Below, piece by piece: positions 10,267 through 33,072 of a stretch of DNA of 64,000 bases. Origin of the DNA: an uncultured Chloroflexia bacterium (lineage in GTDB: Bacteria > Chloroflexota > Chloroflexia > QHBQ01 > JADMIH01); assembly GCA_963797095.1 (NCBI GenBank), contig CAWCNY010000001.1, forward strand, positions 320,001-384,000. Direction: 5' to 3'. A program made the translations under genes and the position numbers. Below the pieces are notes generated by a model. It worked only from the letters and a program-made list of their open reading frames with translations. It was not told where the DNA came from and searched no databases. Each line of letters begins with the position of its first letter. The first letter of the stretch is position 1.

Positions 10267-10269
10267 TTA

Positions 10270-12181: not shown

Positions 12182-12203
12182 CTCACTGAACTCCTTATTT
12201 GGG

Positions 12204-13259: not shown

Positions 13260-13297
13260 ATTCTCATGCCTCCTTCCGAGGGCCCGAACAGGCGGGT

Positions 13298-14910: not shown

Positions 14911-14956
14911 AGTATATCCCCCATTTTTCTGCCGAAACACCGTAAAAACCTGGGAA
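14911..14956 (-). promoter_or_regulatory. putative activator-dependent promoter of the deglycosidase array
   Basis: Coding strand TTCCCAGGTTTTTACGGT-N22-TATACT; same architecture at 19726-19771 and 32912-32957. Confidence 0.7.
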
Positions 14957-15011
14957 TCAACGCGCGCGAATACCGGGCGAATCTTCGCGGGATTTAGCGG
15001 CTGAGCCGCAC

Positions 15012-18000
15012 CTAGATAGCTTCTATGGTGACGAGGCGGTGCTCAATTGCGTAGCGCATGGCGGCCGTGCGCGACGACACGTCCAGTTTGCCGTAAATGA
15101 CGTTGAGGTAGCTGACTACCGTGCTGGGGCTGATCACCAGTTGCTCTGCGATATCCAGGTTGGACAGTCCCTTGGCAACCAACAGCAGCACGTCAAGCTC
15201 GCGTTTGGTCAAGCCTGCGGGGCGCTCAGGGGCCTTGACACGATGCTTGTGCGTGCTGCGAGCGACGTTTTCAAGCGAGAGCAACTGCTCAATGGGCAGA
15301 TTGTGTCCCTCTTCCCATGTGCTGAGGAATTCCAGCTCGCCCATTTCCTGGCGCGCCGAAGCGACCAGTTGTGCACGCTCGGCGGACGGAGCAGGGTGGT
15401 GGTGTGGGTCGGACGCTTGCCGCTGCCTCTCGCCGGCTGCCCAGAGTTGTACGGCCCAGCCCACGCGTCCGCACCGCATGGCCGCGTCGGCCAGCTCCTC
15501 CAGGCAACTGATGATGGCAGCATGCGCGCCTATGGCCTGGGCGCTCGCAATGCAACGTCGAGCCATCGTGATTGATGTCAGGTAATCCTGCCTGTACAGG
15601 GCTGCCTGGGCCATGAGGAGGCTTGCGCGAGCGATACCGCGTATGTCTTGCAGCCGGTCGAACAGGTCGAGCGCCCTCTCAATCAATACCGATGCGCGTG
15701 ACCAATCGCCGCTGCTCAGCGCAAAGCGCCCGTGAGCGCAGAGAAAGTACCCTGCCGTACCGCCCCAGCGGCGCAGTTCCATTTCCTGGATCTGCTCGTC
15801 GAAGAGCGCCTGGGCTCTTGCTCTCTCGCCCGTGGCGAGCAGCGCATCGGCCAGATTCAGCAACGACATGCGGCGCAGATGCAGATCACCCAACTCGGCA
15901 AAGAGCGCGGCGCACCGTTCGAGATGAATACGAGAGCGCGCAAACTCGCCGCAATATTGTGCAAGCATGCCGGACGAGTATTCAATGTGGGCCAGAGTCC
16001 ATGGATCGGCACGCCCATCCATCAGACCGAACAACTCTTCCGCCTGGGCCTTCGCCGCGGCAACATTGCCCTTCACCAGGTGGAAGAGACTCAATATGTG
16101 CGAAGCTCTGGCAATGTTCCTGTTGTCACCGGCTGCTTTACTCAGTTCAAAGCTTTCGCGAAGCCAATCCTGGGCACGCTCGCCCTGGTCAAGATGCAGA
16201 GCGAGCAAGCCCGCAGCTAAGAGGGTTTGCCTGTTGCGCGGTCCGGTGACTTCTCCCTCCGGGGCGTACAATACCTGCTCAGCCCAACTCAACCCCTCAC
16301 TAAGCCTGCCACGAACGTACCAGAATTGCCCCAGATCCCCAACCAGCTCCGCGCTGCGGTCGTAGTCATGCTCAGACAGCAAGAAGGAAAGCGCAGCGTT
16401 GAAGTTGTGTTCATCCCGGTCGAATCTTCCCAGCCAGTGCATCTGCTGCTCACTGTGTAACCCCGGTCCGGCTTGCCGGGCGAGAGAGATGTAGTGTTCG
16501 GCGTGGGCGGTCCTGGCCATACGCAATTCGCCGCTCCGCTCCAGGCGCTCCAGCGCATATTCCCGCACCGTCTCCGAGAGGCTGAGGCGCGGTGCCTTCC
16601 CGGCCTTTGCAGCTGAGAGGAGCAGGCTCTTGTCAATCAGCGAGGAAAGGATGTCCAGAACGGAGGTCGCCAGCTCCCCAAATGCATTGCACACCGCTTC
16701 GGCCGCGTCCAGGTCAAATCGGGCGTTGAAAACGGCAAGCCGCCGTAGCGCCGACTGCTCATCGGGGTGCAGCAGATCATAGCTCCAATCCAGAGTGGCG
16801 CGTAACGTCTGGTGGCGCGCCGGGCGCTCTCGCCCGCCCCCGGTGAGCACCGCCAGCAGGTGCTCCAGTCGCTCAAGCAGCGCCTCAGGCGATAGGAGCC
16901 GCACGCGGGCAGCCGCCAGCTCGATAGCCAGTGGAAGTCCGTCCAGACGCGCACAAATCTGAGCAATCGCCTTCAGGGAGGGACCGCTCACGTCCAGGTT
17001 CGGGGCGATTGCAGTTGCCCGGTCAAGGAAAAGGGCAATTGCCGGGTAATTCAGGAGGTTATCATGGGGCGGCAGGTCGGCGGGGTCGGGGAAAGATAGC
17101 GACTTCACAAGAATGGAGTGTTCGCCCCGGAGGTAGAGCACTTCGCGGCTAGTGACCAGCAGCTTAAGCCCGTCGCATGCGCTAACAAGTTCGTCCAGCA
17201 TTGGGACAACCTCAGGCACCTGTTCGAGGTTGTCGAGGATAAGCAGCAGCTCTCGGTGCTGTAGCGCCTCGCTGAGCAGCACTCTGATCGAGGTGTGGCC
17301 GTCGGTAGGCAATCCGAACAGCCGAGCCACTCTCGTAAGGGCGATTTGCGGATCGCGCACAGAATCGATGGACAGAAAGTATACGCCATCCCGGAAGTCG
17401 GCTTGCAATGCGGAGATGGCCTCAAAGGCAAGGCGTGTTTTGCCTATGCCGCCCGGACCCACCAGGCTGACCACTCTGACATCCGGGCGACGAAGCAGAG
17501 CTACCAGGGACGCCACTTCATCAACGCGGTCCACAAGGCGTGTTGTCGGGAGAGGCACCGGCGCCGGAGGGTTTAGCCTGGCAATCGAGCCTGCGTCCAG
17601 GGCGATGTATCTTGAAGCTGCGGGCTCAGCTTTCGCAACGAGCATATCGACAAGACGATGTGTGCTAGGCTCCTCGGTGTCGCTCAGTTCGGTGGGATCC
17701 TCTGGGTCAACATGGTCGGCCTGATCGCTGTGATCGCTGTAGTCTTCCAGGCGCAGCAGTTTGCCCACAACCGTGATCAGGCGCGCCCAGGTCATTTCCT
17801 CAGCTTTTCCAATGTAGGTACTGATGCGCTTACCCTGCGTCTTGCGATATGCGTACCAGTATGGTTTGCCGGAGCGCACCTCTTTACGAGCGCTGAAAGA
17901 GCCAGCAGGTGACTCGAACCGGAATGAGGAATGTGTGTCGAGCCAGGCAAACCATTGTGCCGAGCCGACCCTAACGGGACTCGTGACGTCAACTATATTT

Positions 18001-18044
18001 TGCAGTAATCCCTGCCGAATAATCGGAGCACAACTGGTGTTCAA
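15012..18044 (-). CDS. LuxR-family STAND transcriptional regulator (N-terminal WFAWL/YWYAYR domain, NB-ARC-like ATPase, TPR, LuxR HTH)
   Basis: GPGGIGKTRL Walker A, LLILDNLEQ, LDGLPLAIELAAAR, C-terminal GLTKRELDVLLLVAKGLSN...YGKLDVSSR; TTG 18044 behind GGAGG. Confidence 0.9.
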   Translation of the reverse strand: MNTSCAPIIRQGLLQNIVDVTSPVRVGSAQWFAWLDTHSSFRFESPAGSFSARKEVRSGKPYWYAYRKTQGKRISTYIGKAEEMTWARLITVVGKLLRLEDYSDHSDQADHVDPEDPTELSDTEEPSTHRLVDMLVAKAEPAASRYIALDAGSIARLNPPAPVPLPTTRLVDRVDEVASLVALLRRPDVRVVSLVGPGGIGKTRLAFEAISALQADFRDGVYFLSIDSVRDPQIALTRVARLFGLPTDGHTSIRVLLSEALQHRELLLILDNLEQVPEVVPMLDELVSACDGLKLLVTSREVLYLRGEHSILVKSLSFPDPADLPPHDNLLNYPAIALFLDRATAIAPNLDVSGPSLKAIAQICARLDGLPLAIELAAARVRLLSPEALLERLEHLLAVLTGGGRERPARHQTLRATLDWSYDLLHPDEQSALRRLAVFNARFDLDAAEAVCNAFGELATSVLDILSSLIDKSLLLSAAKAGKAPRLSLSETVREYALERLERSGELRMARTAHAEHYISLARQAGPGLHSEQQMHWLGRFDRDEHNFNAALSFLLSEHDYDRSAELVGDLGQFWYVRGRLSEGLSWAEQVLYAPEGEVTGPRNRQTLLAAGLLALHLDQGERAQDWLRESFELSKAAGDNRNIARASHILSLFHLVKGNVAAAKAQAEELFGLMDGRADPWTLAHIEYSSGMLAQYCGEFARSRIHLERCAALFAELGDLHLRRMSLLNLADALLATGERARAQALFDEQIQEMELRRWGGTAGYFLCAHGRFALSSGDWSRASVLIERALDLFDRLQDIRGIARASLLMAQAALYRQDYLTSITMARRCIASAQAIGAHAAIISCLEELADAAMRCGRVGWAVQLWAAGERQRQASDPHHHPAPSAERAQLVASARQEMGELEFLSTWEEGHNLPIEQLLSLENVARSTHKHRVKAPERPAGLTKRELDVLLLVAKGLSNLDIAEQLVISPSTVVSYLNVIYGKLDVSSRTAAMRYAIEHRLVTIEAI

Positions 18045-18314
18045 CTGCTTACCTCCACTAGCTCCAGACACATCTGCCGTTTCAGTCTCCAGAGAGGGTC
18101 TGGTGGCTAAAGGTAGATACACAATAATGTCCGGGTGCCCAACGGGTGCGCAACCCATACTCTTCAGTAAGAAGGAGCACAACTAGGGCAAATTAGGCGA
18201 AGCGCTGGCCAAATATGGCTGCTCAGGGCAAAGAACCGGTGCCAGCATACGCAATAGAGGACCTTAGCGCTGCGCTCCTCCCGCCGACGTGGACGTGGCA
18301 ACAACTGTAGGCTA

Positions 18315-18343
18315 TTGACAGTTACACGTATAACTAGTATTAT
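18315..18343 (+). promoter_or_regulatory. sigma70-type promoter with a palindromic LacI-type operator in the spacer
   Basis: TTGACA-N17-TATTAT; AGTTACACGTATAACT (18320-18335) is a CG-centred near-perfect palindrome; lies upstream of the LacI gene. Confidence 0.7.
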
Positions 18344-18550
18344 AAGGGCAGATTGTGCATCTGTCAATACTCTTTGTGGTGACGGCTCACAGGTGCTCAA
18401 GACCCAGGGATTTCCACCTGCGGGGCTGCAAATATGCCGGGGCGATAGCCCCCGGCGAATTATCATATCTTGCTGCGTCGCGGCCCGGATAGGAATAAAT
18501 CTTCTCGCGCGCAAGTAGGATCGACGTATCCAATCGAGGAGGATGCAAGG

Positions 18551-19609
18551 ATGCCGAGGCGAGTTAGAGGCGCAGCGAACCAGGACCAAACCCTGATTGA
18601 TAAGGCCCCCCGCAAGGGCCCGCCTACCAGCGCAGATGTGGCGATGCTCGCGGGCGTTTCTCAGGCCACCGTATCGCTCGTGCTGAACGACGTGGGCAAC
18701 AGCCGGTTCAGCGACGAGACGCGAGACCGTGTGCTGAGCGCGGTGGACGCACTGGGCTACGTGCCGCACGCGATGGCAAGTGCGCTGCGCGCCGGGCAGA
18801 GCAACCTCATACTTATCACCTTCTTGAGCCTCCCAACAGGTGCCCAACTGGCTGTGTTCTATGACCAGTTGGCCGCCAAGCTTAATGAGCGCGGCTACAC
18901 TGTGCTCTTCCATGCTGACCGCGCTCAGTTGGGCGTGGCGGCAGCCCGTGCGTGGGCTGCGCTCAGGCCCGCTGGGGTTGTAGTTGACGGCACGCGGCTG
19001 AGCGACGAGGTGCTGAAGGTCTTGCGCAAAGTCGGAGTCAAGGCAATAGTGGCCATGGGGGGCGATGCCATCAGATCTGTGCCCACAGTCAGCATAGGAA
19101 GCGATGTAGCAGGCAAGCTTGCGACAGAGCACATGATTAGTATGGGCCGCCACAGGCTCGCAGTTGTGGTGCCGAAAGATCCGGAGCTACTGCCGGTAGC
19201 AATGGAGCGCCTCAACGCTGCGGAAAAGGCGGCTCGTGAGCGCAATATCGCTTTGCAGCGTATTGATCTTGCCCTCGATGAGGAGGATGCGGCCAGGGTG
19301 GCGGCAGAGTGGACGCGCGGGCCACACCCTGATGGAATATTCGCGTTTAACGACATTTATGCCGGATTGCTGCTTATTGCCTTACAAGAGGCTGGGCTGC
19401 GGGTGCCGGACGACGTTGCCGTAATTGGCTGCGACGATCTGCCGGTAAGCTGGTTCTTTCGCCCACGCCTCACCACGGTACGCTTCCCTATTGAACAGAT
19501 AACCCGGCAAATAGCGACCATAGTTGACGCCATGGTGCAGGGGAAGAGTGTCGACTTTGAGCGGTCACAGGATACCGAACCGTACCTGGTCTTGAGAGAC
19601 TCAGCCTAG
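18551..19609 (+). CDS. LacI-family transcriptional regulator
   Basis: TSADVAMLAGVSQATVSLVLN HTH, LGYVPH..A.ALR hinge, FAFND, VPDDVAVIGCDD, PRLTTV. Confidence 0.92.
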   Translation: MPRRVRGAANQDQTLIDKAPRKGPPTSADVAMLAGVSQATVSLVLNDVGNSRFSDETRDRVLSAVDALGYVPHAMASALRAGQSNLILITFLSLPTGAQLAVFYDQLAAKLNERGYTVLFHADRAQLGVAAARAWAALRPAGVVVDGTRLSDEVLKVLRKVGVKAIVAMGGDAIRSVPTVSIGSDVAGKLATEHMISMGRHRLAVVVPKDPELLPVAMERLNAAEKAARERNIALQRIDLALDEEDAARVAAEWTRGPHPDGIFAFNDIYAGLLLIALQEAGLRVPDDVAVIGCDDLPVSWFFRPRLTTVRFPIEQITRQIATIVDAMVQGKSVDFERSQDTEPYLVLRDSA

Positions 19610-19725
19610 AACATCGCGATCACAGCCATCGCAGCCAAAGAAGCACCGCAACACGGCGACACGACAAATGGAGAGGGGGATACCCACAATTCCCGTGCCC
19701 TGCCTCCTCAACGATTTCCCTCATT

Positions 19726-19771
19726 TTCCCAGGTTTTTGTAGTAGCTTAAGCCTTAAGCAGCCTTTATACT
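19726..19771 (+). promoter_or_regulatory. putative activator-dependent promoter of the ABC importer operon
   Basis: TTCCCAGGTTTTTGTAGT-N22-TATACT. Confidence 0.7.
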
Positions 19772-19932
19772 CGCCCCGAATGGCTCGCTCCGGCCTACGA
19801 TCTGCGGCGCCAGATGGGAGTTGTTACAAGGGGTCGGTGACCTTCTGATAGACTAGCGCTGGCTATCCAGAGGGGCAATTCGTGCTATCAGCGCTGCGAA
19901 AAACCTGCAGGTTGATCCTAAGGAGGAAAGCA

Positions 19933-21765
19933 ATGCACAAACGAGTAATGTTGCTTATATGCTTTGCGGTTGTCAGCAGTATGCTGCTGTCAGCTTGCGA
20001 CACAGGCTCTCCCACCGCTACTCCCGTTCCCGCACCAACCGCCACCACAGCGCAGGCGGCGCCCACCGATACGACTGCCCCTGCCGCAGCCGCTACCAAC
20101 ACAACTTCCACTGCGGCACAGCCTACCAACACTACCGCCACCGGCGGGAGCACGGGCCAACCAGCCACCACGGGCGTGATGCATGTCATGCCCAACGGCG
20201 GGCAGATGACAACGTTCGCGCGCAACTTCAACCCCTTCGTCCAGGCCTCGCTCTTCCCAACGCAGAACGGCATCTACGAGCTTCTGATGATAGACAACCC
20301 GGCCACCAATAAGATTGAGCCCTGGTTGGCCGATTCCTACGAGTGGAGCAGCGACCTCAAGACCCTGACGCTCAAGCTCCACCCCAACGTCAAGTGGTCC
20401 GACGGGCAGCCCTTCACCGCTAATGACGTGGTCTTCACCTTCGACCTGCTCAAGAACACCCCCGGCCTGCTCGGCAACGGCATCAACGCCGTCAATACAA
20501 CGAGCGGCTACGTTAGCTCAGTGGAAGCGGTCAACGACCTGACCGTGAAGTTCAACTTCTCCAAGGTCTTCACTCCCGGCATCCACGACATCGTTACACA
20601 GGTGATCGTGCCCGAGCACATCTGGAAGGATGTCCAGGACGTGTCGAAGTTCACCAACGACAACCCGGTCGCTACCGGCCCCTTCATCCAGGTGAGCAAC
20701 TTCACCGCGCAGAGCTACCAGATCGAGAAGAATCCCAACTACTGGCAGCCAGGCAAGCCCTACATCAACGCACTCCGCATGGATGCATACAGCGGCAACG
20801 ACCCGACAACCATCGCCTTCATCAACGGCGACCTTGACTACGGCGCATGGTTCCAGATCGACCCGCAGAATACCGTTCTCAACAAGGACCCAACCAACCT
20901 GCACCACGTGGCGGGAGCAGGACCCGGGACTGGCATCATGTTCATGCTGAACACGACGGTCAAGGGGCTTGACGACCCGATCGTGCGCAAGGCCATAAGT
21001 ATGTCGCTCAACCGCCCTGAGATGATGGCCATCGTCATGGGCCCCGGCGGCTACAAGAACGATATCACAGGCCTCAACTTCGCATTCAACTCCTGGAAGC
21101 CCTCCGACCTCTCCAGCCTCGGCCAGGACTGGACCGCTTACGACCCCGACGCGGCCAACAAGATGCTCGACGACGCCGGCTACAAGATGGGCGCTGACGG
21201 CATCCGTGCCAAGGGCGACGTCAAGCTCAGCTTCGAGTACACCTCGATCAATGGCTTTACGGACTTCATCGCCGTTGGGCCGACGATGATAGAGAACATG
21301 AAGACCATCGGCGTGGAAGCCAAATCGGTGTCTCAGGACCCGGGCCTCGCCATCGGCAACTGGCAGGTGGGTAAGTTCCAGATGTCGCTGTGGTTCGGCA
21401 CCACCTCGAGCACTCCCTACTACGTCTACTGGCGCCTGATGTCTCCCAACTCCGTGATACCGCTGGACACCAACACCAACTACAACTACTCGCGCTACGG
21501 CAGCCAGGCCGCCGCGCCCCTGCTCGACGAGTTCGCCTCCACCCAGGACGAGGCCAAGCAGAAGGAAGTTACCCTGCAGCTGGAGAAGGTCTTCGCCGAC
21601 GAGGCGCCTTACGTGCCCATGTGGACGCTGCCCGGCGATTGGTGGTACAGTACCAAGAACTTCACCGACTGGCCGGACCAGACCAAGGTTCTCAGCGGCC
21701 CCGTACGGGGTGTCGGTTTCACCGGCGAGCAATTGTACATACTGACCAGCGTCAAACCCAAGTAA
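19933..21765 (+). CDS. ABC transporter substrate-binding lipoprotein, family 5 (Opp/Dpp-type, probably sugar/glycoside-binding)
   Basis: Lipobox LLSAC, Pro/Thr linker, RNFNPF, LADSYEWS, VKWSDGQPFTANDVVFTF; AGGAGG RBS. Confidence 0.9.
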   Translation: MHKRVMLLICFAVVSSMLLSACDTGSPTATPVPAPTATTAQAAPTDTTAPAAAATNTTSTAAQPTNTTATGGSTGQPATTGVMHVMPNGGQMTTFARNFNPFVQASLFPTQNGIYELLMIDNPATNKIEPWLADSYEWSSDLKTLTLKLHPNVKWSDGQPFTANDVVFTFDLLKNTPGLLGNGINAVNTTSGYVSSVEAVNDLTVKFNFSKVFTPGIHDIVTQVIVPEHIWKDVQDVSKFTNDNPVATGPFIQVSNFTAQSYQIEKNPNYWQPGKPYINALRMDAYSGNDPTTIAFINGDLDYGAWFQIDPQNTVLNKDPTNLHHVAGAGPGTGIMFMLNTTVKGLDDPIVRKAISMSLNRPEMMAIVMGPGGYKNDITGLNFAFNSWKPSDLSSLGQDWTAYDPDAANKMLDDAGYKMGADGIRAKGDVKLSFEYTSINGFTDFIAVGPTMIENMKTIGVEAKSVSQDPGLAIGNWQVGKFQMSLWFGTTSSTPYYVYWRLMSPNSVIPLDTNTNYNYSRYGSQAAAPLLDEFASTQDEAKQKEVTLQLEKVFADEAPYVPMWTLPGDWWYSTKNFTDWPDQTKVLSGPVRGVGFTGEQLYILTSVKPK

Positions 21766-21773
21766 TCTGAAAA

Positions 21774-21801
21774 GGGAGTGGCCCCACGATGGGCCACTCC
21801 C
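21774..21801 (+). other. intergenic stem-loop after the binding-protein gene
   Basis: GGGAGTGGCCC-CACGAT-GGGCCACTCCC, an 11-bp stem in the usual position of ABC-operon mRNA stabilisers. Confidence 0.7.
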
Positions 21802-21882
21802 CTCCTCCCTGGTCCCTGGCTCCCCGGCTACGCTGCTATGCGGGCAGCCGGCCTGTCTTCTCGCCAGACAAGGAGCACGCAA

Positions 21883-22857
21883 ATGCGCTACATTCTGCGC
21901 CGCCTGGGATTCTACATCCTGGCTTTCTTTTCGGCCGTAGTCATCAACTTCGCCCTACCGCGCATGTTGCCGGGCGACCCCGCCTCGATCATCCTGGCGC
22001 AGGCCACCCAGCTCACCTCCGAGCAGGTCCAGGCTATGCGCCTGTCGCTCGGGCTGACCAACGACCCGTTGCCGGTGCAGTTCTGGAACTATGTTACCCA
22101 TGCCATCACGGGCGACTTCGGCATCTCATACTCGTATTACCCGTCCCCCGTCACATCTGTGATCTCCAACGGCATCGGCTGGACGCTGCTACTCGGGCTG
22201 ACCAGCTTGCTCATCGCCTTCATCTTCGGCAACATCATAGGCGTCATCAGTGCCTGGCGGCGCGGCGGCCTGATGGACAACATAACGCCGCCGCTGCTCA
22301 TGTTCATCGGCGCTTTTCCTCCATTCTTCCTGGCCCTCGCGTTTCTCTTTATCCTGGCCCTCGGCACCGGCTGGTTCCCCACCGCCCACTCGTTCGACAC
22401 CTCAATCGTGCCAGGATGGACCTGGCAATATATAGGGAGCGTGGCGCACCACCTTATCTTACCGGCCAGCGTCGTCATACTCGTTTCTATTGGGGGGTGG
22501 GCCCTCGGAATGCGCAACGTCATGATGGGCGTGCTCGGCGAAGACTATATTACCCTCGCCGAAGCCAAGGGCCTCAAGACGAACCGGCTCATGGCCTGGT
22601 ACGCGGCGCGCAACGCCCTCTTACCCGGCATCACCGGCTTCGGTACCCAGCTGGGTTTCATCTTGAGCGGCCAGATATTGATAGAACAGGTCTTCGCCTA
22701 CCCTGGCGTCGGCTACCAACTGGTCAGCGCGGTCGGCAATCGCGACTACCCGCTCATGCAGGGGCTTTTCCTGATGATCACGATCGCGGTGCTGCTCGCC
22801 AATTTCCTCGTTGACATACTCTACGTCCGCCTCGACCCGCGGGTAAGGACCAGGTGA
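21883..22857 (+). CDS. ABC transporter permease (OppB/DppB-like)
   Basis: MRYILRRL, PRMLPGDP, EDYITLAEAKGL EAA motif, RDYPLMQG, LDPRVR. Confidence 0.92.
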   Translation: MRYILRRLGFYILAFFSAVVINFALPRMLPGDPASIILAQATQLTSEQVQAMRLSLGLTNDPLPVQFWNYVTHAITGDFGISYSYYPSPVTSVISNGIGWTLLLGLTSLLIAFIFGNIIGVISAWRRGGLMDNITPPLLMFIGAFPPFFLALAFLFILALGTGWFPTAHSFDTSIVPGWTWQYIGSVAHHLILPASVVILVSIGGWALGMRNVMMGVLGEDYITLAEAKGLKTNRLMAWYAARNALLPGITGFGTQLGFILSGQILIEQVFAYPGVGYQLVSAVGNRDYPLMQGLFLMITIAVLLANFLVDILYVRLDPRVRTR

Positions 22858-23999
22858 GGAGGGCACCGATGCAACAAGAAACACCCGAGAGGAATACTCA
22901 ACCCGACGACCCGGCGGAGCGCGTGGAGTTTATTGATGGCGAGGCCGCCGAAGTCGAGGCCGCCGAAGGCCAGTCCCTCGCCCTCGTGACCGATCCGGTG
23001 CGCGACGCGCAGGACGCGGCGACCGGCGTACAGGTGGAGCTTTCCGGGCAGTTCGTAGCAGCGCCAATAGCAGCGCCCCCAAGGCGGCGCTTCCAGGTGC
23101 TCAGGACGTTCCTGGGCAGCCCCAAGTCGCGCCTGGGGTTCGGGGTTGTGCTCTTCTTCGTGCTGGTCGCCATATTCGCGCCCTGGATCGCCAACGCCAG
23201 CCCGACCAAGTTCACAGGCGTTATAGGCTCGCCTCCTTCGGCTGACCACTGGTTCGGCACCGGCACCCAGGGCCGCGACGTCTTCAGCCAGACCGTGTAT
23301 GGTGCGCGCATCACGCTGATAGTCGGCTTTGCCACGGGCGCGCTGGCCTCGGCCCTGGCGGTGATCGTTGGGCTGACGGCAGCCTACTTCCGCGGCAGGG
23401 TTGACGACATAATCACCCTGATCGCCAACCTCTTCCTGACCATACCGGGCCTGCCTCTGCTCATCGTCATCTCGGTCTATTTCACGGCGGGCACTATCAC
23501 CGTCATCCTGGCCCTGGCCTTCACAAGCTGGGCATACGGCTCACGCATCATCCGCGCACAGGCGCTCTCCATCCGCGAAAAAGAGTTCATAGCGGCAAGC
23601 ATTGTGGCGGGCGAAAGCAGCACCCGCATCATTTTCCGCGAGATGCTGCCTAACCTGATCAATATCATCGGCGGCAACTTCCTCGGCAGCACCCTCTTCG
23701 CAATCGCCGCATCGACCAGCCTTGCCTTCCTGGGCCTGACCGATACGACCGAGGTCAGCTGGGGCACCAACCTGTTCTTCGCTCAAAACGGCGGGGCCAT
23801 GATGAGGGGGTACTGGTGGACATTTGTTCCGTCGGGCCTGTGCGTCGCCTTCGTGGCGTTCGGCCTTTCGATGATCAACTACGGCATGGACGAAATCACA
23901 AACCCGCGCCTGCGCGCTGAAAGAGAACTGCGAAATGTATTCAAGAACAGGAATTTCCGGCGCGGTCGTGCCACGCCCGTCGTCCGCGACTCAGAATGA
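22854..23999 (+). CDS. ABC transporter permease (OppC/DppC-like)
   Basis: HWFGT..GRDVFSQTVYGARITL, REKEFIAAS, LAFLGL, SWG, NPRLR. Confidence 0.92.
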   Translation: MRRAPMQQETPERNTQPDDPAERVEFIDGEAAEVEAAEGQSLALVTDPVRDAQDAATGVQVELSGQFVAAPIAAPPRRRFQVLRTFLGSPKSRLGFGVVLFFVLVAIFAPWIANASPTKFTGVIGSPPSADHWFGTGTQGRDVFSQTVYGARITLIVGFATGALASALAVIVGLTAAYFRGRVDDIITLIANLFLTIPGLPLLIVISVYFTAGTITVILALAFTSWAYGSRIIRAQALSIREKEFIAASIVAGESSTRIIFREMLPNLINIIGGNFLGSTLFAIAASTSLAFLGLTDTTEVSWGTNLFFAQNGGAMMRGYWWTFVPSGLCVAFVAFGLSMINYGMDEITNPRLRAERELRNVFKNRNFRRGRATPVVRDSE

Positions 24000-24987
24000 G
24001 CCACTACTGGATGTCCGCGGGCTGTGCGTTGAGTACCACACGCCCAGAGGCTCGGTGCGCGCTGTCGACAACGTATCGTTCTCCATCGCCCCAGGCGAGG
24101 TATTCGGGCTGGCAGGGGAGTCGGGCAGCGGCAAGTCGACCATAGCCCATGCCATCATGAGAATACTGCGCCCCCCGGCTATGATCAGGAAGGGCGAGAT
24201 CACCGTGAACGGCCAGGACGTGCTCGAAATGACCGATAGCGAGCTTCAGGAGTTCAGGTGGCGCGACGTATCAATGGTGTTCCAGGGCGCTCTCAACTCG
24301 CTGAACCCGGTGATGAAGGTCGGCCACCAGATCGCGGATGTGCTGGTTACGCACCTTCACATACCCTGGAAGCAGGCGCTCGAACGCGCCGCCGACCTTC
24401 TCAAGCTGGTCAACATCGAGCCGAAACGCCTGGAGAGCTACCCCCATGAGCTATCGGGCGGTATGCGCCAGCGTGTTGTCATCGCCATCGCGCTGACGCT
24501 AAACGCACCCCTCCTGATCATGGACGAGCCGACAACGGCCCTCGACGTGGTTGTGCAGAAGGACATCATGAAGCAGATTGCGAGCCTGAAGCAGCAGTTT
24601 GGCTTCTCAACCCTCTTCATCACGCACGACCTGTCGCTGATGGCGGAGCTTTCGGACCGCATAGGCATTATGTACGCAGGGCAGATTGTGGAGATGGCAG
24701 CAGCCAAGGAGATCTTCAACAACCCCTTGCACCCATATACGCAGGGATTGCTTACCTCCTTCCCGCCGCTGCAGGGGGAGAAGCGCAGGTTGAGTGGCAT
24801 CCCCGGCTCGCCGCCCGACATGTCCGAGCCGCCCACCGGCTGCCGCTTCCACCCGCGCTGCACTTTTTGTAATCCTCTGGAGACGAAAGAGCAGCCGAAG
24901 CTAATCGAGGTGCTGCCCGGGCACTGGCTCTCCTGGCACGAAGGCATGCCGCTGAAACTGAACGTCGCGGGAAAGGTACTACCATGA
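23935..24987 (+). CDS. ABC transporter ATP-binding protein (OppD-like)
   Basis: GESGSGKST, YPHELSGGMRQR, MDEPTTALD, HPYT, GCRFHPRC; start may be GTG 23968. Confidence 0.93.
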   Translation: MYSRTGISGAVVPRPSSATQNEPLLDVRGLCVEYHTPRGSVRAVDNVSFSIAPGEVFGLAGESGSGKSTIAHAIMRILRPPAMIRKGEITVNGQDVLEMTDSELQEFRWRDVSMVFQGALNSLNPVMKVGHQIADVLVTHLHIPWKQALERAADLLKLVNIEPKRLESYPHELSGGMRQRVVIAIALTLNAPLLIMDEPTTALDVVVQKDIMKQIASLKQQFGFSTLFITHDLSLMAELSDRIGIMYAGQIVEMAAAKEIFNNPLHPYTQGLLTSFPPLQGEKRRLSGIPGSPPDMSEPPTGCRFHPRCTFCNPLETKEQPKLIEVLPGHWLSWHEGMPLKLNVAGKVLP

Positions 24988-26078
24988 CAACACCGGCTAC
25001 GAATATCGCCCCCGCCGGCGGCCCGGCAACTAACGGCGCGGCAGATCAGTCTCCGGTAGTGCTGGAGGTCCGCAACCTCACCAAGCACTTCCCTATGGGC
25101 AGCCCGCTCCGCCCGCTTTTCGTGCATGCCCTCACCGATGCGTCCTTCACCATTTCGCGCGGAGAGGTAGTCGCACTGGTAGGCGAGTCGGGCAGCGGCA
25201 AATCCACCACCGCCCGCGTGATAGTGAGGTTGATCGAGCCGACCGGCGGCAAGATACTGCTTCATGGCCGGGATATGCTCAAGGAGGAGCCTCGCAAGGC
25301 TTCGCTGAGCTATCGCAAGGCTGTGCAAATGATCTTCCAGGATCCATTCGGCTCGCTGAATCCGGTGCATACGATAGAGCACACGGTGGGCCGCCCCATC
25401 TCCATCCACAACAAGACGAAGCGCTCACCCGAGAACGAAGTGCTTACGCTGCTGGACTCGGTCGGCTTGCACCCGGCGGCCGACGTGGCCGCCCGTTACC
25501 CCTTCCAGCTATCGGGTGGGCAGCGCCAGCGTGTGGCTATCGCCAGGGCTCTCGCGGTAAACCCCGAGATCATCCTGGCGGACGAGCCCGTTTCGATGCT
25601 GGATGTGTCCATCCGAATGGGCATTTTGAACTTGATGGAGCGGCTCAAGGACGACAAGGGGATCGGCTTCCTGTATATCACCCACGACCTGGCGAGCGCT
25701 CGCTACATAGGTGACCGCACCATCGTGCTGTACGCCGGGCACATGGTGGAAGGCGCCGAGAGCAAGGAATTGATGGCCGAGCCTGCACACCCGTATTCCC
25801 GCTTGCTGCTTTCAGCCGTGCCCAACCCCCAGGCGGGCCTCGTGGTGGACGACGAGGAGGTGCGTGGCGAGATACCGTCGCTTATCAACCCGCCCCCCGG
25901 CTGTCCGTTCGCTCCTCGCTGCCCGCACGTCATGGACGCATGCCGACAGGTGATGCCTGGTCGTGAGAATGTATCATCTGACCATTGGGTTCGCTGCCAT
26001 CTCTACGGCCCCGGTAAGTCGCAAGATATACAAGATATAATGGAGAAGCCAGCCGTTTCAGCGGCACAAAGCCAGTAG
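24984..26078 (+). CDS. ABC transporter ATP-binding protein (OppF-like)
   Basis: GESGSGKST, QMIFQDPFGSLNP, LSGGQRQR, DEPVSMLD, GCPFAPRC. Confidence 0.93.
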   Translation: MTTPATNIAPAGGPATNGAADQSPVVLEVRNLTKHFPMGSPLRPLFVHALTDASFTISRGEVVALVGESGSGKSTTARVIVRLIEPTGGKILLHGRDMLKEEPRKASLSYRKAVQMIFQDPFGSLNPVHTIEHTVGRPISIHNKTKRSPENEVLTLLDSVGLHPAADVAARYPFQLSGGQRQRVAIARALAVNPEIILADEPVSMLDVSIRMGILNLMERLKDDKGIGFLYITHDLASARYIGDRTIVLYAGHMVEGAESKELMAEPAHPYSRLLLSAVPNPQAGLVVDDEEVRGEIPSLINPPPGCPFAPRCPHVMDACRQVMPGRENVSSDHWVRCHLYGPGKSQDIQDIMEKPAVSAAQSQ

Positions 26079-26197
26079 ATCTTTGGATTTCGCCCCAGGG
26101 AACGTTCTAACCACCATACTGGCCCATCGGGGGAACGGGCTCTGCCGTTGGAGCATCTCCGAAAAGGCATATGCGGTTCGTCTGAACGGACATCACT

Positions 26198-28267: not shown

Positions 28268-28329
28268 TGGATCTACGAATGCGAGCGTGATGCTCGGTAA
28301 GGACAACTACAGGCCAAGGTATTACTAAC

Positions 28330-28935
28330 ATGACAGACACATCAACCAATATTTCCGGTACGACAATTCTCATCGCTGATGAGGACTCAATCCTGCGGCT
28401 CGACTTGCGCGATCTACTGCAAGCGATGGGCTACCTGGTGATCGGGGAGGCACGCGACGGGCAAAGCGCCATAGCCATGGCGAGAAGCCTGCACCCCGAC
28501 CTGGTCATTGTGGGCGTACGGCTGGTAGGAGATATGGATGGCGTTGCTGTCGCCGCGGTGCTTACGTCGGAGCGGATCGCTCCGGTGCTTCTGCTGTCCC
28601 ACTTCAGCGACTCCCCCCTGGCCCGCCGGGCCGCGGAGGCAGGCGTAGCGGGCTACGTGCTGAAGCCGGTTGATGAGAGTAACCTCTACCCGGCAATCGA
28701 GGTAGCCATCTCTCGTTTCCGGCAGATCCAGTCGCTTGAGAATAAGATAAGCTATTTGCTCGACGAACTGGAGACGACCAAGCTGTTGGAGCGCGCCAAG
28801 GCGGTGCTTATGAAGCAGCACCAGCTGACCGAGGAAGAAGCACTTGTTCGCATCGAATATGTGTGCAACAACGCGAACAAGTCTATGCGCGCCGTAGCCG
28901 AAGCTATAATCCTCACGCAACGTCTTGGCGCGTGA
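28330..28935 (+). CDS. ANTAR-domain response regulator (PdtaR/NasT-like) with degenerate receiver
   Basis: REC fold (PDLVIVGV, GYVLKP), coiled coil and ERAKAVLMKQHQLTEEEAL...SMRAVAEAI ANTAR. Confidence 0.88.
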   Translation: MTDTSTNISGTTILIADEDSILRLDLRDLLQAMGYLVIGEARDGQSAIAMARSLHPDLVIVGVRLVGDMDGVAVAAVLTSERIAPVLLLSHFSDSPLARRAAEAGVAGYVLKPVDESNLYPAIEVAISRFRQIQSLENKISYLLDELETTKLLERAKAVLMKQHQLTEEEALVRIEYVCNNANKSMRAVAEAIILTQRLGA

Positions 28936-29005
28936 CCCGGCCACCTCTGCGCCAGGCTACCCCAGGATGTAGGAGCAAGGAAGCCCATGCGGAAGTGGCC
29001 GTGAA

Positions 29006-29155
29006 GTGGCCATGTCGGAGTGGCCATGTCGGAGTGGCCATGTCGGAGTGGCCATGTCGGAGTGGCCATGTCGGAGTGGCCATGTCGGAGTGGCCATGTC
29101 GGAGTGGCCATGTCGGAGTGGCCATGTCGGAGTGGCCATGTCGGAGTGGCCATGT
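29006..29155. repeat. 14-bp tandem repeat GTGGCCATGTCGGA, 10 perfect copies plus a partial copy, intergenic
   Basis: Counted directly; no spacers. Confidence 0.95.
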
Positions 29156-29234
29156 AGCCGTAAGCAGTAGCCCGCAACGCGACCCGCTGCGTTCGCGTCG
29201 CCTCGCGTGGCCTCAGGAGGGAATAAGAGTAACG

Positions 29235-30149
29235 ATGGTGCAAATAGAATTCGGCTTGCTGCTTCCTCATGGAGCGCAAACACCACAGGCTCGGGTTCGC
29301 TACCTGCGAGATTGCCTAAGCAACCTGCAGATCATAAAGGGCCGTTTCACATCGGTCTGGATGTCTGACCACCTGCAGGTAGGTGGTCAGGATGTCATGG
29401 AGTGTTGGACCACCCTGGCGTACTTCGCCGCCCTCCACCCCGAGCTGTACTTCGGATCGGTCGTGCTCTCCCAGGCCTATCGGAATCCGGCTCTGGTGGC
29501 AAAGATGGGCGCCACCTTCCAGTACCTTACCGGCGGCCGCCTGGTGTTGGGCCTGGGAGCAGGCTGGAAGGAGGACGAATTCCACTCCTATAACTACCCG
29601 TTCCCATCGCCGGCCACGCGCGTAAGCGAGCTGGAGGAGGCGGTCACAATCATCAAGGCGCTGTGGACCCAGGAGGAGACCACTTTCGAGGGTAAGCACT
29701 ACAGTGTGCGCGCCGCCCGCTGCGAACCGAAACCCGAACCTGTGCCGCCCATTTTGATCGGCGCACAGCGGCCGCAATTGATGCGTATCGCAGCCCGGCT
29801 GGCTGACCGGTGGGATATCACCGGCTCGGCGGTATCGCGCGACGACTACCCGGCCCTCGCCCGCAGGATGGACGCGCTCCTGGACGAAGTCGGCCGAGAC
29901 CCCGCGACCTTGCGGCGCAGCTTCTCTGGGCCGTGTGCCGTAGCCCCAACCGAAGCCGAGGTCAAGGAGTTGGCCGCGCGTATACCCGAGGGCAAAGGCA
30001 TAGTCGGCACACCCTCCAGGGTGGTGGAGCAGCTCGGGCGTTTCGTCGATCATGGGGTAACACGGTTCCAGCTTGCGTTCGCGGGTTTCCCCGACACCGG
30101 ACAGATCGAGCTCTTTATGAGAGAGGTTATGCCACAGCTGGGGGTGTAG
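29235..30149 (+). CDS. LLM-class flavin/F420-dependent oxidoreductase
   Basis: VWMSDH, ECWTTLA, YRNPALVAKM, GRLVLGLGAGW, PPILIG; start 29235 (the ORF-track extension runs through the repeat). Confidence 0.88.
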   Translation: MVQIEFGLLLPHGAQTPQARVRYLRDCLSNLQIIKGRFTSVWMSDHLQVGGQDVMECWTTLAYFAALHPELYFGSVVLSQAYRNPALVAKMGATFQYLTGGRLVLGLGAGWKEDEFHSYNYPFPSPATRVSELEEAVTIIKALWTQEETTFEGKHYSVRAARCEPKPEPVPPILIGAQRPQLMRIAARLADRWDITGSAVSRDDYPALARRMDALLDEVGRDPATLRRSFSGPCAVAPTEAEVKELAARIPEGKGIVGTPSRVVEQLGRFVDHGVTRFQLAFAGFPDTGQIELFMREVMPQLGV

Positions 30150-30171
30150 GGGCATTCGCAAACTATTACCG

Positions 30172-30609
30172 TCAGTTGCCCCTGACTTTGGTCGGGGTGA
30201 TCCTGATGGGCACCGTATACTTCGCGGCGAAGTTCTCGGGCGTGCCCCACGGGCCGTGGGCAATGAAGTCGGCATACTTTGTGGCGTACGTCTGGTTCGT
30301 GGCCGCCGACGGCTCTCCGGGGTAGATGCGCGCCTCGCCCCCTATCACGATTATGTGCCCGCCCCGGCCGTCGCCGTCGAAGTTGAACGACACACGTGGC
30401 TTGCGCTTGATATTTGCGACCCTGGCGGCATGAGTGAGGCTGTACATAAGTATCGTGTCGCCCTCCCACAGGAACCAAACCGGGTTGGGCTGAGGCGTGC
30501 CGTCTTCTCCCACTGTGGTGAGCCCGGCCAGCTTCTCCTCGCGCAGCCTTCTCGCCACCCGCCCGCCGAAGGACGTGGAAGTGGGAGGCATAGCAGAACT
30601 CTCACTCAT
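30172..30609 (-). CDS. PPOX-class F420-dependent oxidoreductase (Rv3369-like)
   Basis: LTTVGEDGTPQPNPVWFLW, NIKRKPRVSFNFDG, YATKY, IRITPTKVRG. Confidence 0.85.
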   Translation of the reverse strand: MSESSAMPPTSTSFGGRVARRLREEKLAGLTTVGEDGTPQPNPVWFLWEGDTILMYSLTHAARVANIKRKPRVSFNFDGDGRGGHIIVIGGEARIYPGEPSAATNQTYATKYADFIAHGPWGTPENFAAKYTVPIRITPTKVRGN

Positions 30610-31840
30610 GTTGTAGTCCTTTCTCCTGTTTGATAGTGTCTCCCCTGCTCGGCATGGTTGCGGGCTGAGGCTCGGCGAAATGGTGCCGGGTCAGTTGGGC
30701 AGCAAGCATCAGGACCAGCGCCAGCAGCGCAGCGCCACTGCTCGCCACCATTATGCTGCGTACGCCAAACGCATCGAACACGAAGCCCCCCAGCAGGCTG
30801 GCAGCCAGGGGCGCGAGCCCCTGTATGCCTATGTTCATCAGCCCCTGGTAGGTCGCCCCTCGCTGGGGCGGTGCCCAGCTGTTGACCAGCCGCACAGTGG
30901 TGGGCACGAACGTGGCGTAGCCCAAGCCCTGAAGTATCGCTGCGAGAGGCAGCAGCACAGGCTCAGTAATCAGGAAGGCGCTCATATAGGAGCAAGCGGA
31001 CACGCCATAGGAGAGGAGCAGCGTGCGTGGCCCCCCCAGGCGGTCCATGATAGCGCCGTGAGTCAGCATCACCGGCACCTCCACTGCCGCGGCCACCGCC
31101 GAGTAGATCCCCACCAGCACTTGCCCGCCCAGGTTGCTGAAGTACACGGGGGAGAATATCCGCATCATCGACATGCCCAGGCTCAGGAAGAACGAACAAG
31201 CCAGCACGACCCAGAAACGGCGCTGCACTGAGCTGAGGCGCAGGGTTGGTGGGGCCATGGTGGGTCCTTCCTTCTTATCGCCGAGCAGCGGCACTATTAC
31301 GCTCGCGACGAGATAGAAGAAGGTGGTGACCGGAAACATCAGCAGCATGCCCAGGCGTTGCCACAGCACGCCGGCCACGGCGGGCAACACCGCAAAAGTC
31401 GCGGATCCCCACAGCCGCATCCGTCCAAAACTCAAGTTGTGGCGTGCAGCCAGCTGCACTGCCAACCCGTCAGTGAGGGAGAAAATCGAGCAGCTGCAGA
31501 ACGCAAAGGCGGTTGCCGCCGAAAGCAAGGTGGCGAATGAGCCGGTGAGGGGATATAGCAGGAATATTATGCCGCTGCAGATCATGCTGAGTCGCAGCAG
31601 TGCCACCTGCCAGCCGTGGCGGTCGGCGAAAGATATGAGCACCGGCGCGGCAAACAGCGACATCAACGGCCCTAGGGCGCTCAGCAGCCCGATTTCGCTG
31701 CCGGACAGCCCCCGCTGAGCATAGTAGACGCTCAGGAAGGGCAAGAAGAACGCATTGCCGCTCATGAAGGCCAAGTAGACGAGGCCCCCGCGCGCTGTGG
31801 GGCTGAGACGGGACCGCCACTTTTCGATCATTGCTGCCAC
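30602..31840 (-). CDS. MFS transporter (MFS_1-like)
   Basis: PFLSVYY..RGLSGSEIG, FGRMRLWGS, EVP motif, hydrophobic segments. Confidence 0.88.
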   Translation of the reverse strand: MAAMIEKWRSRLSPTARGGLVYLAFMSGNAFFLPFLSVYYAQRGLSGSEIGLLSALGPLMSLFAAPVLISFADRHGWQVALLRLSMICSGIIFLLYPLTGSFATLLSAATAFAFCSCSIFSLTDGLAVQLAARHNLSFGRMRLWGSATFAVLPAVAGVLWQRLGMLLMFPVTTFFYLVASVIVPLLGDKKEGPTMAPPTLRLSSVQRRFWVVLACSFFLSLGMSMMRIFSPVYFSNLGGQVLVGIYSAVAAAVEVPVMLTHGAIMDRLGGPRTLLLSYGVSACSYMSAFLITEPVLLPLAAILQGLGYATFVPTTVRLVNSWAPPQRGATYQGLMNIGIQGLAPLAASLLGGFVFDAFGVRSIMVASSGAALLALVLMLAAQLTRHHFAEPQPATMPSRGDTIKQEKGLQHE

Positions 31841-31951
31841 TTTGCTACATTCCTGCCACTTACCAGCTGCCGCCTCGACGTGGGCCGTAGCCTATCATGA
31901 TGGTTTCGTGTTGTTCCCTAACGCCCGTTCTTAGCCACTCTCTGCAAGTCT

Positions 31952-32746
31952 CTACAAGCCCGGAACCTTGGAGGCTGCCTCCACATCTGCCGTGCCGATG
32001 AACGCCAGGATGCGCCGCCACGCGTCGTCGCAGTTAGAGGCAAACTCCGGCAACTCGTGGTCGAAGAAGCCGTGCGGAGCGCCCTCGTAGATCGTTATGT
32101 GGTGCGCTACACCCGAGCGATCCAGCTGCTCGTCGAGCTGGCGAGTCAGCTCCACAGGTGCCACTTGGTCGGCGCTGCCGAAAAAGCCTAGCACCGGGGC
32201 CTTCACGCCGAGCGACTCCTCCAGCACGCTTCCCTTGGACCCCGCTACGGGGCTGCTCATACGCGAGGCATAGAAAGGGATCAGTCCTTGCAGGCCGAAC
32301 TCCTGAGTGCCTGTGAGCAGCGTCAGGCTGCCGCCTATACAGAAGCCGGCAACGAACGTCGAGCGCGAGCCTCCCTCACCCTGGCGCAGGTACTCCAGGC
32401 AGGCCCATACATCGCTGAAGAAGTCGGGTAGCTCCAGTTGGGCGGCGTGATCGCGCCCATTGAAATCACTGCCCCTTGGGCTCACGCCAGCTGAATGGCC
32501 ATAAAAGTCAACCGCGAGGGCGGTGATGCCCTGCTCGGCGAAGCGAAGTGCCAGCTTCTTGTAGAAGAGGCCAAGGCCGTTTATGTCGGGATAGATAAGG
32601 ATCTGGCTCTGGCCCGCCCGCTGCGGGCGGGCCAGGTAAGCGTTGAAGCTGTTGCCGTCGGTACCGGTCAGTACGACATCCTCGCCAAGCGCGGCATTAC
32701 CAGCACTTGGCGGATAGGGCGGGTTGGCATCACGGTCATAGCACAT
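31952..32746 (-). CDS. dienelactone hydrolase family protein
   Basis: PDINGL, GFCIGG nucleophile motif, FGSAD, YEGAPHGFF. Confidence 0.9.
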   Translation of the reverse strand: MCYDRDANPPYPPSAGNAALGEDVVLTGTDGNSFNAYLARPQRAGQSQILIYPDINGLGLFYKKLALRFAEQGITALAVDFYGHSAGVSPRGSDFNGRDHAAQLELPDFFSDVWACLEYLRQGEGGSRSTFVAGFCIGGSLTLLTGTQEFGLQGLIPFYASRMSSPVAGSKGSVLEESLGVKAPVLGFFGSADQVAPVELTRQLDEQLDRSGVAHHITIYEGAPHGFFDHELPEFASNCDDAWRRILAFIGTADVEAASKVPGL

Positions 32747-32911
32747 GGGGACTCACTCCTTTAGTGGTCTGCGCACCGCGAGCGCAAGCAAAGGGGAGGC
32801 CAGGGAGACTGCCACCCTGCCACCCTGCGCGGGCAGGCCCGTAAATCAGATTTGCTCACAGGCCGCCGGGAGGTCACCTCTCAGTGGGGATCAACGGACC
32901 GTGTCGTGCAG

Positions 32912-32957
32912 AGTATACCCTGCCATGCAGTGTAGGAATACCGAAAAAGCCTGGGAA
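32912..32957 (-). promoter_or_regulatory. putative activator-dependent promoter of the DLH-MFS-PPOX operon
   Basis: Coding strand TTCCCAGGCTTTTTCGGT-N22-TATACT. Confidence 0.7.
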
Positions 32958-33072
32958 TCACGTTGGGAGGCATTGGCTGGTTCCCAATGGTAATTTGGGG
33001 GTTAGTGTGCAACCAGGAGATGGGCTCAACGTTAGGACAGCCCTCGATGTATATTTCCGCTCACTTAGCGAT

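Follow-up and report, generated by a model that had tools for sequence, protein, structure and literature searches.

Are an array of C-glycoside deglycosidase (CGD) genes, an Opp-type importer and an operon that begins with a gene of the dienelactone hydrolase (DLH) family under one transcriptional control, and if so, which protein exerts it? The question is raised by a 64,000-nucleotide stretch of DNA from an uncultured Chloroflexia bacterium (C1:320001-384000; the window), whose genome, called G000 here, comprises 6,018,930 bases in 8 contigs with 58% G+C. The original prediction, made from the letters of the window, had proposed that three copies of one box, each standing 22 nt before a TATACT, link the three operons and are bound by a STAND-LuxR protein encoded among them, which we call the LAL (large ATP-binding LuxR-family regulator). 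In our best reading of the sequence, the box would mark the regulon of a MalT-like activator, the LAL, placed in turn under a LacI-type repressor in a LacI-LAL cascade. Every part of the original interpretation that could be tested in silico held, and the regulon that emerges is larger than the one first proposed.

The box and its distribution

All three boxes, their 22-nt spacers and their TATACT hexamers were found where the original prediction had placed them, and each box faces a run of genes on its own strand, in line with the claim that each heads an operon. The sites have the following coordinates in the window.

14935..14958, minus strand: site 1 box, a 24-bp box with a partial dyad, GATTCCCAGGTTTTTACGGTGTTT (the 18-mer first proposed spans 14956-14939)
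14911..14916, minus strand: site 1 -10, TATACT, next base C; predicted start ~14904; leader of ~147 nt to ATG 14757
19724..19747, plus strand: site 2 box, 24 bp, TTTTCCCAGGTTTTTGTAGTAGCT (the 18-mer spans 19726-19743)
19766..19771, plus strand: site 2 -10, TATACT, next base C; predicted start ~19778; leader of ~155 nt to ATG 19933
32936..32959, minus strand: site 3 box, 24 bp, GATTCCCAGGCTTTTTCGGTATTC (the 18-mer spans 32957-32940)
32912..32917, minus strand: site 3 -10, TATACT, next base C; predicted start ~32905; leader of ~159 nt to ATG 32746

The three sites share one general form, in which the 18-mer TTCCCAGGYTTTTnnRGT is followed by exactly 22 bases, TATACT and a C. Site 1, which lies 55 nt past the stop codon of the LAL gene, faces a CGD-beta gene (ATG 14757), site 2 faces the gene for the lipoprotein substrate-binding protein (SBP) of the Opp-type importer, and site 3 faces the DLH gene. 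With at most one mismatch, TTCCCAGGYTTTT has three matches in the window against 0.06 expected, and none of 100 shuffles reaches three. Because the spacers of sites 1-3 are unrelated in sequence, the three sites are not copies of a simple repeat.

Across the whole genome, the exact 13-nt core has three copies, all of them within the window, while the 8-mer TTCCCAGG by itself has 306. We scanned both strands of the genome for the composite of the box, a spacer of 21-23 nt and TATACTC, with 23 scored positions. Sites 1-3 each score 23/23, and three further sites were found on the same contig, 13-21 kb to the left of the window.

C1:298608, minus strand: site 4, 21/23; predicted start ~C1:298556
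C1:305995, plus strand: site 5, 20/23; predicted start ~C1:306047
C1:306865, plus strand: site 6, 19/23; predicted start ~C1:306917

A shifted reading of the site at 298608 also scores 19/23, and the real genome has four matches at 18/23; the reversed, non-complemented genome, which served as the control, gives three matches at 18/23 and none higher. All six sites lie at C1:298-353 kb, that is, within ~55 kb around the LAL gene. The count of the original prediction was thus too low: at least six promoters carry the box, five of them independent, and they include the promoter of an aromatic ring-cleavage operon.

The element also recurs in a relative. With 20 candidates scored per genome, 40 genomes of the order yielded just two close relatives of the LAL, one in G027, which belongs to another family (57% identity over residues 156-1004), and one in G004, which belongs to the same genus (45%). 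The gene order in G027 is a LacI gene, a box, the SBP_5/OppBCDF genes and an ANTAR regulator, followed by GH2 and glucuronate isomerase genes in place of the CGDs; the LAL gene is divergent, and a second box lies 5 nt past its stop. The SBPs of the two genomes are 46% identical over their full length, and when their LacI-to-SBP intergenic regions are aligned, no long block is conserved apart from the box (13/13 plus AGTA) and TATACTC.

A degenerate pattern, YCCCNKSYTTWTNNRGT + N22 or N23 + TATRCT, was derived from the six sites of G000 and the two of G027 and searched with zero mismatch in 61 genomes, a count that includes G016, G021, G022 and G033, which are flagged unpublished and are all non-matches. 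It matches only G000 (six times, at N22) and G027 (twice, at N23), with no match in the reversed controls throughout, and allowing one mismatch in G000, G027 and G004 leaves the result unchanged, with none in G004. The original prediction had asked for a genome scan to see whether the motif is widespread. It is not, since there are six genomic sites and 59 of the 60 other genomes are without any. In the species contig collection, a query with the LAL protein found 56 loci, none above 41% identity, indicating that this collection holds no further LAL orthologue; no composite match of at least 18/23 was found in these 56 paralogue LAL loci (787 kb). A scan of metagenome contigs with the pattern returned 118 stretches that represent 15 distinct sequences. 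One intergenic locus of a ~63% G+C gut bacterium, by the ArgRS and Mfd genes, accounts for 105 of the 118; it fits the composite exactly, apparently as a chance match at an unrelated promoter. Among the other matches, L086 lies within an open reading frame (ORF) and L179 is a 647-base fragment, and no LAL or CGD context was found at the three metagenome loci examined, of the 15 distinct sequences.

The likeness of the sites might be a relic of segmental duplication without function. Sites 5 and 6 do lie within a duplicated segment, with flanks ~82% identical over 122 and 95 nt, a point that weakens the case for the regulon in that the six promoters count as five independent ones. However, sites 1-4 share the box, the spacing and the -10 amid unrelated spacers and flanks, and the same blocks are kept between genomes whose proteins are just 46-57% identical. 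We regard it as very improbable that the sites are such a relic.

Some further observations concern single sites. A soil-run contig of ~98.7% identity to 14882-15112, from contigs of four soil runs with patchy coverage, has non-coding changes only at 14929, in the spacer of site 1, and at 14961, 5 nt upstream of its box; the box and the -10 are intact, which is anecdotal and is not used as evidence. No RNA run was found to cover 14000-21000 of the window. At window position 19689, soil-run contig X2 carries a 6-base insertion, TTCCCG, which duplicates a box-like word ~37 nt upstream of site 2. Four copies of GATCGTGA stand within 44 nt (C1:305945-305988) just before site 5, the sole such cluster in a genome that has 313 copies overall, and the corresponding place at site 6 has an inverted pair, GATCACGA-N6-TCGTGATC. 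One more position in the composite scan, C1:550105 on the plus strand (19/23, spacing 23), is without the invariant CCC and was set aside as doubtful.

Geometry of the element and its candidate reader

When the eight sites (six of G000 and two of G027) are aligned on the box, columns 3-5 (CCC), 10-11 (TT), 13 (T), 17 (G) and 18 (T) are invariant. Conservation extends into the -35 position, where A19 and T21 are each kept in 7/8 sites and C22 in 6/8 to give GTATTC, and it also covers the two bases 5' of the box (G in 5/8, A in 6/8), making an element of ~24 bp. The consensus, GAtTCCCAgGyTTTTnnrGTATTC, is a partial dyad: in the register between columns 10 and 11, 33 of 64 arm pairs are complementary, compared with 4-24 at 35 other registers. 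If the start is assumed to lie ~7 nt past the -10, the element reaches from ~-54 to -31 with its centre at ~-42.5, while the 3' edge of the 18-mer would be 34-35 nt from the start. With these predicted starts, the site would abut the -35 position, as the original prediction had claimed, and overlap it as well. The -10 is TATACT at six sites and TATGCT at two. The claim that a canonical -35 is absent was also borne out; with spacings of 16-19, no site exceeds 3/6 to TTGACA, a value that site 4 reaches, while the seven others stay at 2/6.

At all eight sites, a same-strand start codon with a good ribosome-binding site (RBS) follows 79-200 nt beyond the predicted start. A sigma-70 promoter scan of 14500-20100 called no promoter at site 1 or site 2, and found those of the LAL gene (P_LAL) and of the lacI-1 gene (P_lacI-1), which stand face to face.

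18339..18367, minus strand: P_LAL, TTGACA-17-TATAAT, 12/12 to consensus
18315..18343, plus strand: P_lacI-1, TTGACA-17-TATTAT, 11/12

The organism thus clearly uses promoters of the TTGACA-17-TATAAT type elsewhere in this locus. An element in the place of the -35 could in principle be read by RNA polymerase itself, in which case no activator would be needed: the box would act as an UP-like T-tract and GTATTC as the -35 recognised by an alternative sigma factor. The invariant T-run at ~-44 to -40 does resemble an UP-element subsite, and the conservation does reach the -35 position with GTATTC. However, the best-conserved block, TTCCCAGG, lies 32-40 nt from the -10, which is too far for a -35, and the -10 is of the housekeeping type. 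In addition, the ORFs examined in the window and in C1:290-320 kb yielded no gene for a sigma factor, and six sites in 6 Mb, all in a single island, are unlike a sigma regulon. Direct reading by the polymerase is therefore improbable, and we consider it very likely that the box is a locus-specific regulator site of some kind.

Which regulator, then, would read it? We think that the LAL probably acts as a direct activator at the box, a view that draws on its recognition helix and its distribution.

15012..18044, minus strand: LAL (STAND-LuxR), 1010 aa from TTG 18044, with a GGAGG RBS

In the 1056-aa frame of the LAL, residues 991-1045 match GerE (PF00196; 58.2 bits, cut-off 23.5) and residues 228-347 match a P-loop NTPase (NB-ARC, 29.5 bits with a cut-off of 23.5; AAA_22, 28.9 with a cut-off of 27). 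A TPR_12 match of 27.0 bits is under its cut-off of 30.1, and the 45%-identical relative in G004 matches TPR_MalT (56.5, cut-off 45). The recognition helix of the helix-turn-helix (HTH) is STVVSYLNVIYGKL in G000 and NTVVSYLNLIYRKL in G027. The TVVSY of this helix occurs in one of the 27 GerE-type domains in G000 (tblastn), most of which read TV[K/R/N/H]xH. In an order-wide search with the 72-residue HTH, that of G027 is 78% identical, while the next ones, at 64-71% (G004, G013, G014, G015, G017 and G025), all read TVKTY; G035 (63%) and a second locus of G027 (59%) rank below the helices that were read. No box of at least 16/22 was found in the 12-19 kb around each of the six TVKTY loci. Consequently, the TVVSY helix and the box occur together in two of two genomes and neither occurs at the six sister loci, a co-occurrence that is a correlation among relatives and not a proof of binding.

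The same evidence would also fit a genuine regulator site that is bound by some other protein, which might be encoded elsewhere or be the MmyB-like regulator at 33073-33903 or the NarL-type response regulator of G027. Other regulators lie in or beside the island, and a partial dyad suits many HTH families. On the other hand, the MmyB-like gene and the NarL-type regulator, the latter downstream of the second G027 box, were each seen in only one of the two islands examined. The distribution of the box (two of 61 genomes) is that of the LAL with the TVVSY helix, and in both G000 and G027 a box lies directly behind the LAL gene. We judge a different binder to be unlikely, and the LAL is kept as the preferred reader.

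The TVKTY sister clade has a different word, TTGTGTAACT, in 6/6 of its loci, which was not used as evidence. A recurring word, TTTGTGTAACTnTT, is present there in 1-3 copies per locus; for comparison, the whole of G000 has 67 copies of TGTGTAAC. In this clade, the word follows the LAL gene in some cases and stands just before an RBS in others. The copies of TTTGTGTAACTnTT are at the following positions.

L198: 10314, 7255
L199: 10088, 6760
L200: 2209, 4150
L201: 8272
L202: 12556
L023: 374

Putative LacI operators and the proposed cascade

The LAL gene shares its upstream region with the gene of a LacI-type repressor, and a candidate operator was found between them.

18551..19609, plus strand: LacI-1, with a LacI HTH and Peripla_BP_3; same strand as site 2 and immediately upstream of it
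18321..18334: candidate LacI-1 operator, GTTACACGTATAAC, 13/14 to the palindrome GTTATACGTATAAC

In the genome, GTTACACGTATAAC is the only match at 13/14, while 30 control palindromes of the same half-composition give 1-24 matches at 12/14 or better. It overlaps the predicted start of P_LAL and falls within the P_lacI-1 spacer. Because this one palindrome covers the two overlapping promoters, LacI-1 probably represses both. In G027, the palindrome GTTATACGTATAAT/C lies in the spacer of the LacI promoter and a second copy lies ~100 bp away towards the LAL gene, giving two 13/14 matches. A second paralogue, LacI-2, is encoded beside site 5. The region between it and the divergent CGD/GFO operon has a 34-bp perfect palindrome, CTATAATATGCTTACACGTGTAAGCATATTATAG, at ~C1:304490-304545, flanked by TATAAT hexamers that face each other. 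With a core, TTACACGTGTAA, similar to the LacI-1 operator, this palindrome is probably the LacI-2 operator that controls both directions. The recognition helix is VSQATVSLVLN in LacI-1 and in the G027 LacI, and VSGATVSYVLN in LacI-2.

The proximity of these genes to the boxes raises the question of whether the box itself is a LacI-family operator. Three boxes have a LacI gene directly before them, namely site 2 (LacI-1), site 5 (LacI-2) and the Opp site of G027 (the G027 LacI), and the helices of LacI-1 and the G027 LacI are identical. However, both paralogues have CG-centred palindromes (GTTACACGTATAAC and the core TTACACGTGTAA) at their own promoters, kept in G027 as the two 13/14 copies, while the centre of the box is a T-tract with no CG. 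The box is also located upstream of a promoter without a -35, which is the position of an activator and not of a repressor; the LacI-2 helix differs and yet the neighbouring box is of the same family; and sites 1, 3 and 4 have no adjacent LacI gene. A LacI-family reader of the box is thus very improbable. Since both LacI paralogues have their own putative operators, the box is left to the LAL, and LacI-1 most likely acts upstream of the LAL and not at the box.

In the proposed cascade, LacI-1 bound to the shared operator would repress its own gene and the LAL gene, and its release by a ligand would allow the LAL to be made. The LAL, together with ATP and a ligand of its repeat domain, would bind the 24-bp box at ~-42.5, where its LuxR-type HTHs, as a dimer or as pairs within a multimer, could supply the contact that the missing -35 cannot give, in the manner of MalT and LuxR. 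The sigma-70 holoenzyme would then initiate at the six promoters, and the island would be switched on. Because lacI-1 precedes site 2 on the same strand, transcripts that run on from P_lacI-1 could sustain basal expression of the importer.

In addition to the duplication of sites 5 and 6, several points weigh against this reading. Both G027 sites have a spacer of 23 nt and not 22, and at sites 1, 2 and 4 a degenerate right arm leaves the dyad weak. Extra upstream half-sites are not significantly enriched (three observed, 1.26 expected), so MalT-style cooperative box arrays are not seen. The degenerate pattern was derived from the very sites that it recovers; its result is therefore informative on specificity and not on sensitivity. 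The LAL searches scored 20 candidates per genome, including 20 of the 98 first-look paralogue candidates in G000, with up to 185 candidates in relatives, while the HTH search scored every candidate. Only two genomes carry the box, and the LAL, LacI and ANTAR genes are syntenic in both, so that co-occurrence alone cannot single out the LAL. The LacI gene of G027 (L020 ~18930-18960, minus strand, G027:C4) shifts frame just past the HTH (RAG / HSNLV), being either a pseudogene or the product of a one-base assembly error; the cascade may thus not run in G027, or the assembly may be wrong. Finally, the binder, the transcription starts, the activation, the co-induction, the cascade and the inducers are all inferred from the DNA sequence.

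Genes of the island and relation to known regulons

Pfam confirms the gene calls that the earlier reader had made in the window. Operon extents follow from strand and spacing alone. In addition to the LAL and LacI-1, the island contains the following genes within the window.

181..14757, minus strand: deglycosidase array of 18 genes, namely 8 CGD-beta (PF19906), 9 xylose-isomerase-like TIM barrels (CGD-alpha-like) and 1 GFO/IDH/MocA oxidoreductase
19933..26078, plus strand: Opp-type ABC importer, with an SBP_bac_5 lipoprotein, two permeases and two ATPases
26198-28267, plus strand: MFS-cytidylate-kinase-like fusion, on the same strand after the importer
28330-28935, plus strand: ANTAR response regulator, on the same strand after the importer
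ends at 30149, plus strand: luciferase-like monooxygenase, after the ANTAR regulator
30172..32746, minus strand: DLH, MFS transporter and PNPOx-like genes, downstream of site 3
33073-33903, minus strand: MmyB-like regulator (Pfam)

The same-strand run of the array goes past the start of the window and through C1:310-320 kb. The concentration of deglycosidase genes is very large: in all, there are 13 CGD-beta genes of PF19906, eight in the window and five in C1:299150-320000 (2 + 3 by stretch), and a gene for a xylose-isomerase-like TIM barrel adjoins every one of them. The CGD genes are interspersed with genes for several GFO/IDH/MocA oxidoreductases, a glucokinase and an aldo/keto reductase. 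The operon of site 4 encodes an extradiol-dioxygenase-type (Glyoxalase) protein, an FAD monooxygenase, a cyclase, an SDR, an SMP-30-like protein, an FAA hydrolase, an epimerase and an esterase, while site 5 faces a cupin gene and site 6 a further CGD-beta/alpha pair. The same-strand genes headed by the six boxes number ~40 in all, and transposase remnants start near 35.2 kb of the window.

Some of the neighbouring genes are of interest in their own right. The frame at 26198-28267 (plus strand) is a single one of 689 aa that joins an MFS domain (residues 33-374) to a cytidylate-kinase-like domain (454-636), an unusual fusion. The MmyB-like regulator (minus strand) is divergent from a luciferase-like monooxygenase (plus strand), the two covering 33073-35041 just upstream of site 3, and they may form a separate regulator-enzyme pair; three more luciferase-like monooxygenases are encoded elsewhere in the island. 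The ANTAR regulator follows the Opp-type operon both in G000 (28330-28935, plus strand) and in G027 (L020 10798-11394, minus strand). All box promoters have long leaders, but an Rfam search of five promoter loci gave no match at E up to 1. The leaders of sites 1 and 2 showed neither intrinsic terminators nor terminator-like hairpins, and thus no evident attenuator of the ANTAR type. The leader of site 2 (~19850-19900, plus strand) contains the short AGCGCT-core palindromes CTAGCGCTGG and TCAGCGCTG, ~30 nt apart, which are absent from the G027 leader.

The predicted regulon resembles one that has been mapped in Actinoplanes sp. SE50/110, where the LAL MalT activates a maltose-regulated 51-gene region via TCATCC-N5-GGATGA (PMC7567727). 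At 17 mapped starts, this motif overlaps the -35, its 3' end lying 34.4 +/- 1.0 nt from the start, and it recurs in the corresponding regions of related genera (PMC7567727). Both systems have a large ATP-binding LuxR-family regulator encoded within a large genomic island, a dyad-like motif that overlaps or abuts the -35 in many promoters of the island and whose 3' end falls ~34 nt before the start (predicted here), occurrence of the motif in matching regions of related genomes, and a regulator that is an activator (proposed here). The element described here differs in its sequence, GAtTCCCAgG-T5-nnGGTATTC, with longer arms and a T-tract at the centre. The cargo here is C-glycoside and aromatic catabolism, and a putative LacI operator over the regulator promoter is seen only in the present island.

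For E. coli, the same report gives the MalT box as GGGGA[T/G]GAGG at the -35 position (PMC7567727). Two further reports describe how inducer and ATP drive the multimerisation of MalT and its cooperative binding to MalT boxes (PMC4381067), and name MilR as another LAL pathway activator (PMC5015266). The LAL is like the MalT of E. coli and Klebsiella in being a STAND protein with a P-loop nucleotide-binding oligomerization domain and a C-terminal LuxR HTH, between which the helical-repeat sensor of MalT may have its counterpart in the TPR match below cut-off. The promoters, too, are without a functional -35; those of MalT have a proximal site at the -35 position and are activated by recruiting RNA polymerase, as is proposed here for the box. 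In contrast, the MalT boxes of these accounts are asymmetric decamers of which several copies are bound cooperatively, while one composite site per promoter is found here. The recognition helix here (TVVSY) is also atypical.

In the luxI promoter, the lux box forms a 20-bp dyad with its centre near -42.5. The element here is similar to this class II arrangement in that a dyad suited to a GerE-type HTH is placed at ~-42.5 of the predicted start, with a -10 and a poor -35. LuxR, however, is a small acyl-homoserine-lactone receptor and not a STAND ATPase. LacI-1 and LacI-2, with their putative operators (GTTACACGTATAAC and the TTACACGTGTAA core), are like the autoregulated repressors of the LacI/GalR family, in which 14-16-bp CG-centred palindromes lie within or over their own and divergent promoters, and this placement is conserved in G027. 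Unlike in those autoregulators, the divergent gene under the LacI-1 operator is that of the putative pathway activator, which suggests a repressor-to-activator cascade. The logic is thus the same as in known LAL regulons, while the motif, the helix, the cargo and the added LacI layer differ.

A full-text literature search returned no paper that combines C-glycoside, deglycosidase and LuxR, and the combination of C-glycoside deglycosylation, gene cluster and transcriptional regulator gave only unrelated work; the regulation of C-glycoside catabolism appears to be undescribed. It is possible, rather than probable, that the TVVSY LAL represents a new DNA specificity within a LacI-to-LAL cascade and is the master switch of a ~60-kb, ~40-gene catabolic island that couples uptake, more than 12 C-glycoside deglycosidase pairs and the ring cleavage of the aglycone. 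Because a MalT-style activator in place of a -35 is textbook, what the finding offers of value is a map of the pathway rather than a new principle. The two regulator-operator pairs, the LAL with the 24-bp box and LacI with the 14-bp palindrome, come from a poorly studied lineage and might be used as an inducible switch or a biosensor. The box joins the importer, the deglycosidase arrays, the ring-cleavage operon and several unassigned enzymes into one predicted unit, which points to candidate enzymes for the steps after the cleavage of the C-C bond. If this reading is true, the box would serve as an annotation-independent marker for unassigned genes that belong to the pathway, such as those for the DLH, the PNPOx-like protein, the cupin and the MFS-kinase fusion, and the circuit would be the first described regulatory circuit for bacterial C-glycoside catabolism.

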